22,909 bases of DNA from assembly GCF_003334305.1 (NCBI RefSeq), contig NZ_QOWS01000039.1. The stretch is one strand, 5' to 3'. Source of the DNA: Escherichia coli (GTDB lineage: Bacteria > Pseudomonadota > Gammaproteobacteria > Enterobacterales > Enterobacteriaceae). Made by a program: the position numbers and the translations under genes. This document shows positions 1-8,642 of this stretch, one piece after another. Below the pieces are notes generated by a model. The model was not told the DNA's origin. It worked only from the letters and a program-made list of their open reading frames with translations, and searched no databases. Positions within the stretch are counted from its first letter, which is position 1; each line of letters begins with the position of its first letter.

Positions 1-61
1 TGTTTTTGTCATGTGAGTCACCTCTGACTGAGAGTTTACTCACTTAGCCGCGTGTCCACTA

Positions 62-421
62 TTGCTGGGTAAGATCAGTGCCTGGCACACGCGTTTGATG
101 GAAGACGGCGTTCAGGCAATGCGCGATTATCTTGCCGGACTGGATATCGCTTCGCCAGAGCATCAGGTTCTGATGAACGTAACAGCAAAAAGCGAGGTCG
201 CTCCGTCAATTATCAAAGAAAATCTCTCATTACACTTAACCCATACGGTGAAATGGACTGAATCTCTCGATACATTTCTGAATATGCCAACCCCGGTAGC
301 TTTCCTTGAAATAAGTAATAAGCCCTATTTGGGGAATATGTTAAATGATTTTGCTGGCGTGGATCAGCAACGAGTTATGCATTGTCGTAAAGCATTTAGT
401 GATGCAAAGGTATTCAAATGA
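62..421 (+). CDS. Small hypothetical protein (119 aa) resembling the C-terminal subdomain of FabD-like acyltransferases; possibly a gene remnant
   Basis: ORF starts at TTG 62; stop codons in all three forward frames within nt 1-47, so it cannot be the tail of a longer intact gene. The pattern V-x-N-V...V-K-W-T-E-S...F-L-E-I resembles the C-terminal region of malonyl-CoA:ACP transacylase from memory. Its stop overlaps the next start (ATGA at 418-421). Confidence 0.4.
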
Positions 422-1404
422 TTCCTGATTATTTAACTTTTATTCGCTTTCAGGATAAACGAAATCTGATATACATTTATGCTATTGGACTTATTCTGAT
501 AGGCTTTTATTGGAAAAATGCAGGATTTACTTTTCCATCAGAGGATATTGGTGTCGTTAGTGGGATTCTGGCCCTGGTGCTGTATAATTTTATTTTTGAT
601 CTCAAGGCGTACTGGGCTTATAAATGCGTCACGAAGAATATCGATTTTTCGTGGTTTAAGAAAAAGCAGAACCACAAAATAGAATTATTTCTTACACAAC
701 CTCTGGTGGCAGGATTTCTGTCGTTAATCATGTTGAGTGCAATGAGTTGGGGGCTATACCAGCTTCTACCCTCGTTATATGCGCTGTTCCTGATTTCGTT
801 ACTTGGGCCGTTGGTCATCTTTCTGCTGTTTCGGATGATCCGCACCAGTTATGTCAAGCAGGTCGCTATTTCAGTAGCGAAAAAAGTAAAATATAAAAGT
901 CTGACTCGCTATGTGCTGCTTTCGGTGTGCATCTCAACGGTTGTTAACCTGCTTACTATCAGCCCGTTACGTAACAGTGATTCTTTTGTGACAGAGGGGC
1001 AGTGGTTAACGTTTAAATCGATAATTGCATTGCTCATTCTTTGTGGCGTAGTGTTGGCGATTAATCTGTTTTTTCTGCGCTTCTCCAAGCGGTACGCTTT
1101 TCTGGGCAGGCTTTTTTTGCAGGAAATCGATCTGTTTTTCTCCAGTGAAAATGCGTTGTCGACCTTTTTTGCCAAGCCGCTTTGGCTTCGGTTATTCATA
1201 TTGCTGGTTATTGAAATGATGTGGATTACGCTGGTGTCGGTATTGGCAACGCTTGTAGAATGGCGGATTTGGTTTGAAGCCTATTTTTTACTCTGCTATG
1301 TACCGTGCTTAATTTACTATTTTTTCCATTGTCGATGCCTCTGGCATAACGATTTTATGATGGCATGTGACATGTATTTCCGTTGGGGGCATTTTAATAA
1401 GTGA
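418..1404 (+). CDS. Polytopic inner-membrane protein of unknown function (328 aa)
   Basis: Long uninterrupted ORF in an AT-rich region with several long hydrophobic stretches (for example [65 protein letters not shown]). No recognisable catalytic motif. Confidence 0.6.
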
Positions 1405-1535
1405 GGAAGTTACAGGAAGTGACCAGATAACGCATATATGTTCTCTACTATCTTGCGCATTTTGATTGTTGACTGAGTAACCAGACAGTTGATGTGCACA
1501 ATTTCCCCTCGCCCTAACAGACGTGGGCGGGGGCA

Positions 1536-1610
1536 CCCGGTGTGTGCAATATACGAAAAAAAAGCCCGTACTTTCGTACGGGCTCTTCTTTAAATATGGC
1601 GGTGAGGGGG
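1536..1610. repeat. 75-bp direct repeat, copy 1, containing a terminator-like hairpin
   Basis: Copy 1 (1536-1610) and copy 2 (1717-1791) match at 74 of 75 positions at an offset of 181 bp. Hairpin GCCCGTAC-TTTC-GTACGGGC at 1563-1582 is preceded on the plus strand by A8 (1555-1562), i.e. followed by T8 on the minus strand. Confidence 0.85.
1555..1582 (-). terminator. Putative rho-independent terminator (minus-strand orientation) inside repeat copy 1
   Basis: 8-bp GC-rich stem with a 4-nt loop followed by a T8 run on the minus strand; on the plus strand only a weak TCTTCTTT tract follows. Confidence 0.45.
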
Positions 1611-1716
1611 GGATTGACTCGCTTCGCTCGCCCTGCGGGCAGCCCGCTCACTGCGTTCACGGTCTGTCCAACTGGCTGTCGCCAGTTGTCGAACCCCGGT
1701 CGGGGCTTCTCATCCC

Positions 1717-1791
1717 CCCGGTGTGTGCAATATACGAAAAAAAAGCCCGTACTTTCGTACGAGCTCTTCTTTAAATATGGCGGTGAGGGGG
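1717..1791. repeat. 75-bp direct repeat, copy 2 (one mismatch, inside the hairpin stem)
   Basis: Same sequence as 1536-1610 except GTACGAGC versus GTACGGGC in the right stem arm. Sits about 160 bp upstream of the integrase start. Confidence 0.85.
1736..1763 (-). terminator. Putative rho-independent terminator (minus-strand orientation) inside repeat copy 2
   Basis: Same hairpin plus T8 as copy 1, with one stem mismatch. Confidence 0.4.
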
Positions 1792-1951
1792 ACCGCCTGA
1801 AATAAATCTGACTTAATCCAGGGGTGTTATATAATTTCATTATAAACAATGTATTACACTTTTTGTTGTCCGATATTATCTAATGTATTCTTAGTGAAGC
1901 GAGAGACTAATGGCATACTGGATGGCATACCAGAGTGACGGGAATTAGCGT

Positions 1952-3154
1952 ATGGCAGTATTGACGGATACGAAAGCAAGACATATCAAACCTGATGACA
2001 AACCATTGCCCCATGGGGGAATTACCGGACTGACCCTTCATCCTTCTTCAGTAAAGGGGCGGGGGAAATGGGTTTTTCGTTATGTAAGTCCGGTGACACA
2101 AAAAAGACGTAATGCTGGATTGGGAACTTACCCAGAGGTCAGTATTGCTGAAGCTGCACGTACTGCCCGGATAATGCGAGAGCAACTTGCTGCAGGTGAT
2201 GATCCTCTGGAGATTAAAAAGGCTGAATCTGAGAAAGTCGCTATCCCAACATTTGCCGATGCAGCCAGGCGTGTACATGCAGAACTGTCTCCTGGATGGG
2301 AAAATCCAAAGCATGTAAGGCAGTGGTTATCGACGCTTGAGAATTACGCGTTTCCTCAACTGGGAGCAAAAACGCTGGATTCGATTACGGCTGCGGACGT
2401 GGCAGAAACACTGCGTCCAGTCTGGTTAACCTTGTCAGAAACGGCAAGCCGGGTTAAACAGCGCATTCATGTTGTTATGCAGTGGGGATGGGCGCACGGT
2501 TTTTGTGTAGCAAATCCTGTTGATGTGGTTGACCATTTGCTTCCTCAGCAGACAAGAGGACGTGATGAACACCAACCCGCAATGCCCTGGAGGCAGTTAC
2601 CGCTTTTTGTGGCGACCAGTGTGTATACCGATGAACCTTATAATGTTACCCGCGCACTGTTATTAATGGTGATACTTACAGCAACTCGCTCGGGCGAAGC
2701 CAGGGGAATGCGCTGGGCTGAAATTGATTTTCATAAGCGGGTATGGACTATACCTGCAGAAAGAATGAAAGCTAGGCTACAGCATCGTGTTCCTTTATCC
2801 CGGCAGGCTATTTACATTCTGGAAAATATACGTGGCCTGCATGATGAACTGGTGTTCCCTTCACCCAGAAAGCAGCAGATCCTTTCCGATATGGTGTTGA
2901 CAAGTTTTCTGCGTAAAAAGAAAGCCGTCAGTGACATTCCGGGGCGAGTTGCCACGGCACATGGTTTTCGCTCAACATTCAGGGACTGGTGTAGCGAACA
3001 GGGGTATTCGCGGGATCTGGCGGAAAGGGCGCTCGCTCATACGCTGAAAAATAAGGTTGAGGCGGCATATCATCGTACTGATCTACTGGAGCAGCGTGTA
3101 CCGATGATGCAGGCATGGGCGGATTATGTGATGTCTCAAATTGTGAATAAATAA
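1952..3154 (+). CDS. int: P4-family tyrosine integrase (site-specific recombinase, 400 aa)
   Basis: N-terminal arm-type region (KWVFRYVSP...) and C-terminal catalytic core with R (TATRSGEARGMRWAEID), H-x-x-R (AHGFRSTFRDW) and the Tyr motif (AAYHRTDLLEQR). Overall layout matches P4/CP4-57-type integrases. Confidence 0.9.
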   Translation: MAVLTDTKARHIKPDDKPLPHGGITGLTLHPSSVKGRGKWVFRYVSPVTQKRRNAGLGTYPEVSIAEAARTARIMREQLAAGDDPLEIKKAESEKVAIPTFADAARRVHAELSPGWENPKHVRQWLSTLENYAFPQLGAKTLDSITAADVAETLRPVWLTLSETASRVKQRIHVVMQWGWAHGFCVANPVDVVDHLLPQQTRGRDEHQPAMPWRQLPLFVATSVYTDEPYNVTRALLLMVILTATRSGEARGMRWAEIDFHKRVWTIPAERMKARLQHRVPLSRQAIYILENIRGLHDELVFPSPRKQQILSDMVLTSFLRKKKAVSDIPGRVATAHGFRSTFRDWCSEQGYSRDLAERALAHTLKNKVEAAYHRTDLLEQRVPMMQAWADYVMSQIVNK

Positions 3155-3340: not shown

Positions 3341-5158
3341 TCACTCCTGCTGAGACTGAATTATTCCTAGTGCGTCATAAATCAGTCTTCTGCGTAGTTT
3401 ATTGTTTTTATCTGCACCATATAACATAAATATATTTTCAACTTTTTCTTCAGGTGTTCTGAGATAATGGATAAGAAAGGTTATCATTCCAACACAATGG
3501 AATAAAGTGAATCCATCAAACAGGCTTATCAGGTTTCCTTTTTTTTCCCGTGTTGTAAGTATTTTTTCGCGGGTAAGAATATTTGCCAGTTCATGGGGGG
3601 CTGATATGTTTCTGCTGTCTATAATGTCATTTATTTTACCAAGGGCTATATCAACTTCCTGTAATAGGTTATTTATCATAGCTGAGTGAATGTTATTGGT
3701 TTCATGTTCCTGACAGTTTATGAACTTATAAATCATTGAGTTATACAGAAATATTACTCTTCCTAATAAATATGTGTTTGTGTCATTTTGAAGACAGGAC
3801 TCTGGGTATTCGTGATCCAGTGAAATAAGGTTAATGGACTCGCCCTGATAAGTCATAAAATAATTGATGTCATTTAATAATGCTCGGATATTTACATGAT
3901 TTTTACTGAATTTTATTTTAAATGCTATCTTTAGTATAGCAAACGCGGCAATGATAAATCCAAAAGGTAATTTCTCATAGTTCAGTTTATTGATGGTGCG
4001 ATGAACACTTTCAGTCTTTCCTGAAGTAAGTTGTCTCAAACAGTTAACAAATTCTGTATAGCCATTTAAGACATAATGGCATGAAGAATCTTTTAAAGAG
4101 TTTTCTATGTTTTGTAATGTGACGCCGTTGTTCAATGTATAAATGTAACCGCCAAAGACAATGTTTTCAATCTCAACGACACAATTTATTGTTTTTTGTT
4201 CAGGATAAAGATAAATATCAGAAATACTATAGTCTCGTATTGCGTCAATGGCATCCCACGATAATGCACTGTCAATTTTCAGTGTATAAAATGGTGAGTT
4301 CTCATTAGGAAAGTAATATATGTATTTGTTCAGTATATTCATTACATCTATTGGGTTGGTTAAATATAATAACTGGCATTCATATTCTGAAACTTCTCTT
4401 TCGCTTATCAGCATTTTATATAAAGTTGCCAGGGTGCTTGTTAATGAAGTTCGTCTTTCGAAAGCCAGTAATATAGTGAGATAATAACATGCAACCTGAA
4501 CTTTATCTAAGTCAGAAATTATTTTTTCCTTGTCTTCATTACTTAAATAAAGCAGATGTTTACAGGTTTCTTTGCATGTGTTGATAGTTGCGATAAGTTT
4601 TGTTTTTCCTGGTGTACTGTTTTTGCGAATATTACGAATGAATTCATATACGCCATCAAAGATATCTTTGAAATGCGCATTCGCTGGCGTGTATCCGGAT
4701 AAACATAACTTAACGTAATTTCGCAGATATGTCCTTGCAGCATGATATATATCATCCTCATTATCCGGTATCTGAGTGAGAAAAGAATGAATATGATAGT
4801 AAAATGCCATCTCATTATCCGGGCGATATGTGTTCCTGATGTCGAGTGCGAGAATCATTGGTACAATGTCATTAAAATATTTTTGTTTTATTATTTGATG
4901 TGTTTTGTCTGTAAAAACAGAATAGTGCATTAGCTTAACATAGAGATCTTCATATCTCCTAAATATAACTTTTCGTTGTTCTTTACTCAATACTTGTTCT
5001 TTATCAATAATGTTTATTAATTCATCAAACATGTCGCCCAGTGAATGTTGATGTGAGGAAAAATTTTTAATATTTCGGATGTCACGGCTATTCTGGTTTT
5101 TAGCCAGAACACCAAAACATGAAAAGACATCATACATTATAGTGATAAAATTATACAT
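3341..5158 (-). CDS. Hypothetical protein, 605 aa, AT-rich orphan cargo gene
   Basis: Single long ORF in a visibly AT-rich segment that contrasts with its neighbours. No catalytic or nucleotide-binding motif recognised by eye. Occupies the position that yfjH holds in CP4-57. Confidence 0.7.
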   Translation of the reverse strand: MYNFITIMYDVFSCFGVLAKNQNSRDIRNIKNFSSHQHSLGDMFDELINIIDKEQVLSKEQRKVIFRRYEDLYVKLMHYSVFTDKTHQIIKQKYFNDIVPMILALDIRNTYRPDNEMAFYYHIHSFLTQIPDNEDDIYHAARTYLRNYVKLCLSGYTPANAHFKDIFDGVYEFIRNIRKNSTPGKTKLIATINTCKETCKHLLYLSNEDKEKIISDLDKVQVACYYLTILLAFERRTSLTSTLATLYKMLISEREVSEYECQLLYLTNPIDVMNILNKYIYYFPNENSPFYTLKIDSALSWDAIDAIRDYSISDIYLYPEQKTINCVVEIENIVFGGYIYTLNNGVTLQNIENSLKDSSCHYVLNGYTEFVNCLRQLTSGKTESVHRTINKLNYEKLPFGFIIAAFAILKIAFKIKFSKNHVNIRALLNDINYFMTYQGESINLISLDHEYPESCLQNDTNTYLLGRVIFLYNSMIYKFINCQEHETNNIHSAMINNLLQEVDIALGKINDIIDSRNISAPHELANILTREKILTTREKKGNLISLFDGFTLFHCVGMITFLIHYLRTPEEKVENIFMLYGADKNNKLRRRLIYDALGIIQSQQE

Positions 5159-7190: not shown

Positions 7191-8642
7191 ATGAAAAGAG
7201 AGGCTTTTATGTGCTTACTTGCACCAGAAAATCCTTATCCGATATATGCACTACCACCGCTGGTGAGAAATGCAATAATTGAAACTCAAAAAAATACACA
7301 GGCACCTTTGGCTATGGTGGCAACATCCGCATTAACAGCGATCTCAATTGCCTGTCAGAATCAGATTGACGTGTGCAGACCTGGAAATTTACATGGGCCT
7401 GTTAATCTTTACTCTCTGATTCTGGCTGATTCCGGTGAAAGGAAAACGACCGTGGATAAAGTGTTTATGAAAGCATTTTATCTCAGGGATGAAGCCCTGG
7501 CGGAAGAATACGCGAAACTGGTTGAGAATTACAGTACAGAAAAGGAAATATGGGAGCAAAAACAAAAAGCGCTGGAATCAAAATTTCATAAAGAGATTCG
7601 TGCCGGTAAAGATTACAAGGCAACAGAATCAGAGCTTGAAACGCATCTGAATAAACCTCCTGTTCCGCCGCAGATACGTCGAACAATTTTTAATGAGACA
7701 ACGATAGAGGGAATGTTAAAATATTACTCCGATAGCAATCGCTCTTTTGCTCTTGTATCCAGTGAAGGGGGGGTAATTTTTGACAGCCGGGCCATGAGTA
7801 AACTGGGGATTATTAACACTTTGTGGGATGGAGGTTCTCTTTTCATCGACAGGAAATCATCTCCCGGAATTAATTTGAAGGAGCCAAGACTGACGATATC
7901 GGTGATGATTCAGCCTGATGTTTACCACAAAGGTTTTTGTACGCGAAAAAAAGAAATTGTGAAAACGTCAGGACATCATGCAAGGTTTTTGATGTGTCAA
8001 CCAACATCAACGCAGGGGACAAGGATAATAACCGGAGATAATTATTCATCACAGTATCAGGATTTGTTTGAAGAGAGGATCAATGAGCTTATTGATGAAA
8101 GTCTGGCGATGAGTGGTGAACGACGTTGCCTTCACTTTTCTCCTCAGGCTGCCAGAATCTGGACGGATTATTACAATGATGTGGAATCGAAGCTGGGGGG
8201 ATTGGGGCCTTTAAGACATTGCCGGGAATATGCTGCTAAAAATGCAGAGTATATGGCAAGACTGGCAGGACTTATTTACCATTCGAGCGGTGAAGAGGGG
8301 GAGATTTCCCCTTACACTGCAGAAATGGCGAGAGAATTAGCAATATGGTACGGTAATGAGTATGTGCGGTTGTCTAATCCGTTAACTTTTGACAACTCTG
8401 CCCTGACCGTACCTATGCGACTCATTCCAGAGGAGCTTGAACTTTTCAACTGGATAAAAAGCTATTGTATTGAGAAGGGGATCCTCTGTATGAAAAAAAA
8501 TGACATTTTACAGCGTGGTCCGAACCGTTTCCGGAAAAAGGATAAAATCAACTGGTTACTGGATTTACTGTATGAACAAAACAGAGTTGTACCGGTTATT
8601 GAGGGAAAAACGTTGTGTGTCGCACCTAACTTTGACCTCTGA
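7191..8642 (+). CDS. YfjI-like (DUF3987-type) protein, conserved backbone gene of CP4-57-like islands
   Basis: 483-aa ORF directly downstream of alpA. Family assignment is from gene order and recalled similarity, not from a search. The more likely start is the ATG at 7209, which has a GAGAGG ribosome-binding site about 7 nt upstream. Confidence 0.65.
   Translation: MKREAFMCLLAPENPYPIYALPPLVRNAIIETQKNTQAPLAMVATSALTAISIACQNQIDVCRPGNLHGPVNLYSLILADSGERKTTVDKVFMKAFYLRDEALAEEYAKLVENYSTEKEIWEQKQKALESKFHKEIRAGKDYKATESELETHLNKPPVPPQIRRTIFNETTIEGMLKYYSDSNRSFALVSSEGGVIFDSRAMSKLGIINTLWDGGSLFIDRKSSPGINLKEPRLTISVMIQPDVYHKGFCTRKKEIVKTSGHHARFLMCQPTSTQGTRIITGDNYSSQYQDLFEERINELIDESLAMSGERRCLHFSPQAARIWTDYYNDVESKLGGLGPLRHCREYAAKNAEYMARLAGLIYHSSGEEGEISPYTAEMARELAIWYGNEYVRLSNPLTFDNSALTVPMRLIPEELELFNWIKSYCIEKGILCMKKNDILQRGPNRFRKKDKINWLLDLLYEQNRVVPVIEGKTLCVAPNFDL

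Follow-up and report, generated by a model that had tools for sequence, protein, structure and literature searches.

In the chromosome of Escherichia coli K-12 MG1655, ymdE (b1028), a pseudogene, and ycdU (b1029) lie 3′ of an IS3 copy (insE/insF), between dgcT (ycdT) and the tRNA gene serX. The pga-dgcT-IS3-ymdE-ycdU region was found to be variable and was termed island-like by Goldstone et al. 2016 (PMC4951805). The same authors described ymdE as 'foreshortened by an IS3 element', reported that other phylogroups have a full-length homologue of 945 bp, and gave YcdU as a putative inner-membrane protein with 8 TM helices. An IS3-mediated deletion of 26,518 bp, from ymdE to pyrC, is on record from a laboratory-evolved K-12 clone (PMC8611074). 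In E. coli O157:H7, O-island 47 (OI-47) comprises z1528-z1556 and measures 31.7 kb (PMC8565820). Finally, the islands found at serX and serW, OI-43/48 and SRL-PAI, have a published 14-bp direct repeat, TGGCGGTGAGGGGG (PMC3064760).

The DNA analysed here is a stretch of 22,909 nucleotides from E. coli (contig NZ_QOWS01000039.1), referred to below as the window. Its positions 62-1404 are the K-12 arrangement ymdE-ycdU adjoining IS3. They share with MG1655 the gene order, the IS3/ymdE break-point (nt 599 of the transacylase gene to which ymdE belongs) and the ATGA overlap between the two genes, and the window ycdU has 99.2% nucleotide identity to that of K-12 derivatives. Window 1-1950 is 100% identical to E. 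coli strain A7, where the RefSeq order is pgaDCBA, dgcT, IS3, ACP S-malonyltransferase (incomplete, missing N-terminus), ycdU, RtT sRNA and tyrosine recombinase. The locus is therefore ordinary and already described: the IS3 truncation of ymdE and the serX attachment site have both been published. The comparison has little discovery value in itself. It does aid the correct reading of the window, the left flank of which is chromosomal context and not part of a composite island. It is highly probable that an IS3-associated deletion left window 1-1404 as its right-hand scar, in the form also seen in K-12, with ycdU as an orphan relic and an independent serX island adjacent to it.

The window opens within IS3. 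Positions 1-77 (minus strand) are an IS3 end; thousands of records contain the identical sequence (100% match) under the annotation 'IS3-like element IS3 family transposase'. orfA begins in positions 1-12, its start codon being the reverse complement of window 10-12, and positions 39-77 (minus strand) are the terminal inverted repeat, its terminus TGATC being read on the minus strand at 77. The first open reading frame, ORF1 (62-421, 119 aa), has a TTG start at 62 that sits in this inverted repeat, and its first six codons are IS-derived. The first-pass annotation had taken ORF1 for a frame resembling only the C-terminal subdomain of FabD-type acyltransferases. This resemblance is real: ORF1 matches TIGR00128 (fabD, 290 positions) only at positions 196-264 (E 1e-9, 38.3 bits; cut-off 260.9 bits). 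The limits given for the frame hold as well, but the frame cannot be read as transacylase throughout, since window 1-77, including the TTG at 62, is IS3. Transacylase-derived DNA in the window is confined to 78-421 (plus strand), the ymdE pseudogene. It corresponds to nt 599-942 (residues ~200-313), or about the last 114 codons, of the gene for a 313-aa FabD-like/trans-AT-type malonyl-CoA:ACP transacylase; window 78 aligns to position 8001 of the strain 149 locus (L002), which is nt 599 of the transacylase gene. In strain A7, RefSeq annotates 65-421 as 'ACP S-malonyltransferase, incomplete, missing N-terminus', with a pseudogene flag. The remnant retains the AWHTRLM catalytic histidine motif (His203; xHxxxM in the family), the first homologous sequence past the IS3 end, along with the C-terminal portion of the large subdomain. 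With the break at residue ~200, it is without the GHSVG serine nucleophile (Ser97) and all upstream parts, that is, more than 60% of the transacylase fold. Because the serine nucleophile is absent, the ymdE fragment cannot be an active transacylase.

In the STEC strain 149, the 313-aa transacylase is intact and overlaps ycdU by the same ATGA. This intact orthologue reaches 178.7 bits against TIGR00128, under the 260.9-bit cut-off, and on its profile score it is a relative of the family, not the housekeeping FabD equivalog. Among solved structures, it aligns best with PksC (5dz6, E 1e-32), DisD and FabD, with GHSVGE and AWHTRLM in register. The alignment to the discrete malonyl transacylases of trans-AT PKS systems (B. 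subtilis PksC, 5dz6; DisD, 3rgi) and to FabD (1mla) extends over residues 11-279 of the orthologue, with E values from 1e-32 to 1e-22, and their GHSxGE and xFHxxxM motifs are conserved in it. Unlike PksC, DisD and FabD, the window copy is the last third only.

OI-47 holds the intact version of the window transacylase and ycdU, with 98% nucleotide identity over window 78-1610 and the same ATGA coupling. The OI-47 strains keep the whole interval, including a vmpA-type EAL gene, grvA, fimbrial genes, two-partner secretion genes and a 15-kb FAS/PKS-like cluster. They have no IS3 at dgcT, whereas the window has kept the last 1.3 kb only. In strain 149, the cluster (~14.8 kb) is a type II FAS/PKS-like biosynthesis-and-export cluster closed by the transacylase and ycdU. 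Its 15 genes encode, in order, AcpS, an SDR ketoreductase, a FabZ-like dehydratase, an ACP and a GcvT-like protein (genes 1-5); an 852-aa fused double ketosynthase, a 407-aa ketosynthase, a 317-aa unknown protein, an ABC ATPase and a 218-aa unknown protein (genes 6-10); and a LolC/E-like permease, a LolA/TP_0789-like protein, a 462-aa unknown protein, the transacylase and YcdU (genes 11-15). The ABC transporter of this cluster is LolCDE-like. Upstream of the cluster are two-partner secretion genes, fimbriae, a winged-helix regulator and an EAL protein, and then dgcT. The aryl-polyene (APE) cluster of E. coli was considered as an identification and rejected, as its gene content differs: an ABC transporter and a GcvT-like protein are present in the strain 149 cluster, and no adenylation enzyme or MMPL exporter was seen in it. 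A literature search by O157 locus tags and by the GcvT plus ketosynthase combination returned nothing useful on the cluster.

The comparison with OI-47 shows the ancestral state, in which about 33 kb follow dgcT and close with the ~15-kb operon-like cluster. The interval absent from the window, from the dgcT-side point to transacylase nt 599 in strain 149, is 33,054 bp. IS3 is annotated at this locus in strains A7, 61, 2013C-3264 and REL606. It is located 10 nt past the dgcT stop, and the dgcT-side flank is contiguous with OI-47 in strain 149. The dgcT-side junction, ending in AAAGCGGCATTT and followed directly by TGATCC, is identical in all four strains. On the opposite side, the 39-nt IS3 end has one of three neighbours, depending on the strain. 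It is joined to transacylase nt 599 in A7, in the K-12-like strain 61 and in the window; strain 2013C-3264 has transacylase nt 414 at this point, and E. coli B REL606 has the RtT repeat past ycdU. The bases flanking IS3 are TTT and GTG, so there is no target-site duplication. Because the IS3/dgcT junction is fixed and its partners at the other end form a nested series, we infer an IS-mediated, one-ended adjacent deletion, an explanation that is well supported. It would be of the intramolecular-transposition type and anchored at the dgcT-side IS3 junction. In the window, ycdU has lost all of its pathway partners. The deletion in the laboratory-evolved clone (PMC8611074) involved the same IS3 copy and ran in the same direction; there too, one end with its flank stayed fixed and the other was joined to progressively farther DNA. 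That event was observed in the laboratory, whereas those described here are reconstructed by comparing strains. Two intermediates would be predicted: one in which IS3 adjoins the OI-47 edge and that edge is still intact, and one in which IS3 has entered the transacylase gene at nt 414 without loss of the upstream gene. Each was found in 0 of the 5,426 complete genomes surveyed. Since these intermediates are unsampled, the order of events and the nature of the first step (adjacent deletion or recombination between two IS3 copies) can only be inferred. One by-product of the present comparison is thus a documented nested deletion series anchored on a single IS3 copy.

The same survey of 5,426 complete E. 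coli genomes, in which ycdU was scored as present if at least 80% of it was carried, gives the distribution of the segment. ycdU is found in 2,608 genomes (48%); in about 52%, both genes are missing. An intact 5′ part of the transacylase gene occurs in 390 genomes, and 1,117 have the nt 418-593 segment. These counts place the cut at nt 414 in about 727 genomes and, as in the window, at nt 599 in about 1,494. Full-length ycdU is present in about 2,200 genomes without the cluster, and its nucleotide identity in the listed genomes is 98.6-100%. The ymdE-ycdU segment is accessory because ycdU is carried by only these 2,608 genomes. The first-pass annotation had doubted that the left flank belongs to the conserved core, and these counts agree with it. 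The flank was also correctly called AT-rich: GC is 44% in the remnant (0.439) and 40.5% in ycdU (0.405), 0.41-0.42 over window 1-1500 and 0.452 over the whole window. The GC content of the E. coli genome is about 0.508. The segment is accessory at the species level, yet it is syntenic and common, and it is neither core nor a novel islet.

The second frame, ORF2 (418-1404, plus strand, ATG start), overlaps ORF1 by the ATGA at 418-421 and encodes an intact protein of 328 aa with 8 helices, as expected from the earlier description of a polytopic membrane protein coupled to ORF1. In strain A7 it is annotated as ycdU (WP_000611856.1; 100% DNA identity). ORF2 can be regarded as a real gene because it has full-length homologues (36-73% identity in other Enterobacterales), a confident AlphaFold model, and eight hydrophobic helices with a charge bias in the loops. 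The AlphaFold (AF2) model has a mean pLDDT of 88.9 and a pTM of 0.85. There are 23 K+R residues in the inferred cytoplasmic (odd-numbered) loops and 1 in the periplasmic (even-numbered) loops. Taken together, helix positions and charge indicate that this inner-membrane protein has 8 TM helices and that its N and C termini are both cytoplasmic (N-in/C-in). An alignment of 40 sequences contains 20 invariant residues, including W66, Y68, R142, H310, D318 and R322, and a C-terminal motif WHxDFxxxCDMYxRW. Most of the invariant residues are in the inferred cytoplasmic loops and tails, and N34, P95, P183, L184, C209, W269 and P296 are within helices.

YcdU has no family in NCBIfam or PADLOC. A Pfam match to PSII_Ycf12 (25 residues, E 0.001) is spurious, and the protein belongs to no Pfam family. 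Its homologues fall into 114 clusters at 90% identity. An exhaustive HMMER search of 1.84 billion representatives returned only 47 matches (50% identity representatives), and the family is therefore narrow. The named homologues are from Enterobacterales (Enterobacter, Kosakonia, Mixta, Klebsiella, Pantoea, Izhakiella and Silvania). The structural relatives in AFDB are all uncharacterised and reach Providencia, Paraburkholderia, Verminephrobacter and Desulfatitalea (TM 0.8, 14-22% identity). Among solved structures, nothing resembling YcdU was found beyond generic helical bundles. Its conserved C-terminal helix, which contains His, Asp and Cys, would be cytoplasmic.

Wherever enough upstream DNA is available, the gene for the YcdU homologue comes immediately after the transacylase gene and closes the cluster. 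This holds for six loci: those of K. aerogenes, Pantoea and Kosakonia, of two distant homologues (25-27% identity) and of O157-type E. coli. The chromosomal surroundings differ among all six. Because the adjacency is constant across differing chromosomal contexts, YcdU is a dedicated component of the cluster. The family position is thus that of the final gene after the transacylase in a cluster with ketosynthase, ABC and LolA-like genes; in the window, the adjacency to the remnant has been kept and the cluster deleted. The second by-product is therefore the placement of a y-gene in a conserved, uncharacterised lipid/polyketide cluster, which provides a context for assigning its function. Tentatively, YcdU could be a membrane-embedded terminal component that receives the ACP-bound product on the cytoplasmic side of the inner membrane or processes it there. 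It would act through its conserved cytoplasmic loops and the C-terminal WHxDFxxxCDMYxRW helix, before export by the ABC and LolA-like proteins. A bolder and rather unlikely idea is that YcdU founds an uncharacterised 8-TM family whose members off-load the product or hand it to the membrane, as the obligatory last step of lipid synthesis and export by a type II FAS/PKS-like cluster, hitherto undescribed, in Enterobacterales and beyond, and that the orphan copy is independently selected. On the latter point, the over-representation of the genes in mastitis isolates, discussed below, hints at an independent selected function of orphan ycdU.

In the window, ycdU is intact and still translationally coupled to the ymdE fragment, and it has no recognisable promoter of its own; a search for a sigma-70-like promoter between the IS3 end and ycdU found none. 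In K-12, the RNA counts reported for ycdU are low (53 and 64; PMC10294691). The gene may be a non-functional or very weakly expressed relic in this genome. As an alternative, ymdE′ and ycdU could form a working two-gene module that selection, for instance in the bovine udder, has preserved without regard to the missing cluster, with a shortened YmdE translated from an IS3-supplied start or from an internal ATG. Such a module would be consistent with the retained ATGA coupling, with a window ymdE′-ycdU free of further inactivating mutations, and with the intact ycdU of the roughly 2,200 cluster-less genomes. The crude dN/dS of ycdU is also below 1, being 0.28 between the window and strain 149 (7 non-synonymous and 7 synonymous substitutions) and 0.05 between the window and a strain cut at nt 414 (1 and 6), but with 6-15 substitutions per pairwise comparison the sites are too few to separate a relic from a selected gene. 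The few substitutions in ycdU may predate the deletion. Goldstone et al. argued for a retained function on the grounds that ymdE-ycdU is present in 98.5% of mastitis isolates, compared with ~80% of phylogroup A, and shows no attrition (PMC4951805); however, the association could also reflect linkage or clonal structure. Against a module stand the loss of Ser97 and of most of the fold from the ymdE fragment, the lack of a promoter-like site upstream of ycdU and its low transcript levels in K-12. Moreover, the region can be dispensed with: E. coli B REL606 and the laboratory clone (PMC8611074) have lost it, 52% of genomes are without it, and IS insertions within ycdU do occur, such as IS1 in H46. 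On balance, a selected two-gene module seems improbable, and we prefer to see ycdU as an orphan left beside the deletion scar.

A different reading concerns the whole left flank. According to the first-pass annotation, the integrase island abuts another accessory segment, which was thought to fit the failure to find a simple tRNA-flanked boundary. The flank would then be a separate islet of horizontal origin with ill-defined ends, next to an island without a tRNA target, and the two would form a composite accessory region. Its low GC (0.40-0.44), its presence in only 48% of genomes and the negative ARAGORN result (no tRNA over the window) would all suit this reading. However, ARAGORN finds no tRNA because the window ends inside the island, and the boundary itself is clear. 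Homology to island-free strains stops exactly at 1791; in strain 61 (L003), the match stops at 7791, inside tRNA-Ser 7778-7865. Positions 1778-1791 (minus strand) are TGGCGGTGAGGGGG, the last 14 nt of tRNA-Ser serX. This cryptic ser′X is the left direct repeat (att core) of the island and coincides exactly with the junction. It is the published direct repeat of this island family (PMC3064760), and it occurs in two exact copies in the window against 0.01 expected. In strain A7, which is identical over window 1-1950, the island closes ~71 kb farther right with an intact tRNA-Ser (serX, 1964797-1964884), and ghrA comes next. The left flank is chromosomal context common to island-free strains: K-12-like strains without the island have the same sequence through window 1791, inside serX, and continue with ghrA-ycdXYZ-csg. 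The claim that a simple tRNA-flanked boundary is absent is thus refuted, and an islet of separate origin in a composite region is extremely improbable. The deletion scar remains the preferred explanation for the flank, next to a ~71-kb island that was shown by this comparison to have integrated independently in serX, with the 14-nt serX 3′ end at 1778-1791 as its boundary. Judged by its junctions, this island is a classical tRNA-integrated element.

Between ycdU and this boundary lies the serX trailer (1536-1791), in which a 75-nt repeat occurs twice (1536-1610 and 1717-1791) with a spacing of 181 nt. Each repeat has a terminator-like hairpin (1563-1584 and 1748-1761, respectively) and ends in the 14-nt sequence. 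On the minus strand, downstream of where serX would lie, Rfam RF00391 detects an RtT-type RNA element at 1597-1733 with 46.3 bits (gathering score 45) and an E value of 3e-6; RefSeq annotates it as 'RtT sRNA'. Compared with the K-12-like strain 61, in which the tRNA is intact, serX in the window is occupied by the integrase island, and its last 14 nt are left beside the RtT repeat. Window 1717-2000 is 100% identical to the junction in STEC strain 149. The tyrosine recombinase/integrase of the island (1952-3154, plus strand) matches the NF007246 integrase domain with an E value of 3.5e-55, under the 434-bit cut-off. The serX/serW islands with a P4-type integrase (OI-43/OI-48 of O157, SpLE1 and Shigella SRL-PAI) have the same 14-bp direct repeat as the window island. 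They also share its layout, as seen in the window and A7: the integrase is at the ycdU-proximal end, the cryptic ser′X is on the left, and serX on the right is intact. Their cargo is another one, with ter, ure and iha, whereas Mokosh defence genes, an enterotoxin, sugar-utilisation genes and fec are found here.

Comparison of strains shows that the deletions form a nested series, all anchored on a single copy of IS3. The IS3 junction on the dgcT side is the same in every strain examined, and the variable junction lies at 77/78 in the window, at 3540/3541 in the locus of strain 2013C-3264 (L011) and at 3577/3578 in that of E. coli B REL606 (L013). Among 5,426 complete genomes, the far end of IS3 is joined to nt 414 of the transacylase gene in about 727 and to nt 599 in about 1,494, the window and K-12 being among the latter; in REL606 it reaches the RtT repeat past ycdU. 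Neither of the two possible pre-deletion intermediates, IS3 beside the intact edge of O-island 47 or IS3 at nt 414 with the upstream gene intact, was found in any of the 5,426 genomes.

YcdU belongs to a fatty acid/polyketide synthase-like (FAS/PKS-like) cluster, which is conserved in several Enterobacterales in differing chromosomal contexts (L004 1104-15897 in STEC strain 149; L006, L008, L010, L015 and L016). It encodes AcpS, KR, DH and ACP, together with a GcvT-like protein, a KS, a fused KS-KS and the transacylase. YcdU, three unknown proteins, a LolA-like protein and an ABC transporter of LolCDE-like type make up the remainder. A literature search on this AcpS-to-YcdU cluster found no paper, and the cluster is apparently undescribed. 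The C-terminal motif of YcdU, WHxDFxxxCDMYxRW (residues 309-322, window 1342-1383), contains five invariant residues (W309, H310, D318, M319 and R322), and D312 and C317 are conserved at 90% or more. The motif probably lies on the cytoplasmic side and suggests that YcdU, which has no assigned function, contains a site for catalysis or metal binding.

The 14-nt att core of serX occurs twice in the window (1597-1610 and 1778-1791), because the RtT-type repeat located 3' of that gene also terminates with this tRNA-like sequence. In strain 149 (L002 9520-9742), the first copy is directly joined to the integrase arm and the 181-nt RtT unit is absent, reflecting either a pseudo-att site used by the island or recombination between the two repeats.

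Directly after the integrase lies a 605-aa ORF (3341-5158, minus strand), hypothetical in RefSeq, in the AT-richest part of the window (GC 0.32-0.34). It has no match in NCBIfam or PADLOC, and the identical protein accession is annotated in strain 149. Further into the serX island, PADLOC identifies a type I Mokosh anti-phage system (10689-17080, plus strand): a 1,652-aa protein gives a full-length match to MkoA (2,206 bits) and is followed by one of 478 aa that matches MkoB (503 bits).

In strain A7, which is identical to the window over 1-1950, the serX island also carries the ferric-citrate operon fecIRABCDE (L005 46169 to L012 4115), about 46-55 kb right of ycdU and beyond the window. Both fec and ymdE-ycdU are among the mastitis-associated 'core' loci of Goldstone et al. 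(PMC4951805), and this joint association could be due in part to physical linkage via the serX island. Left of the window (L001 6440-10809), A7 has a stop within pgaA and a frameshift in dgcT; therefore, the neighbouring biofilm genes are decaying too.
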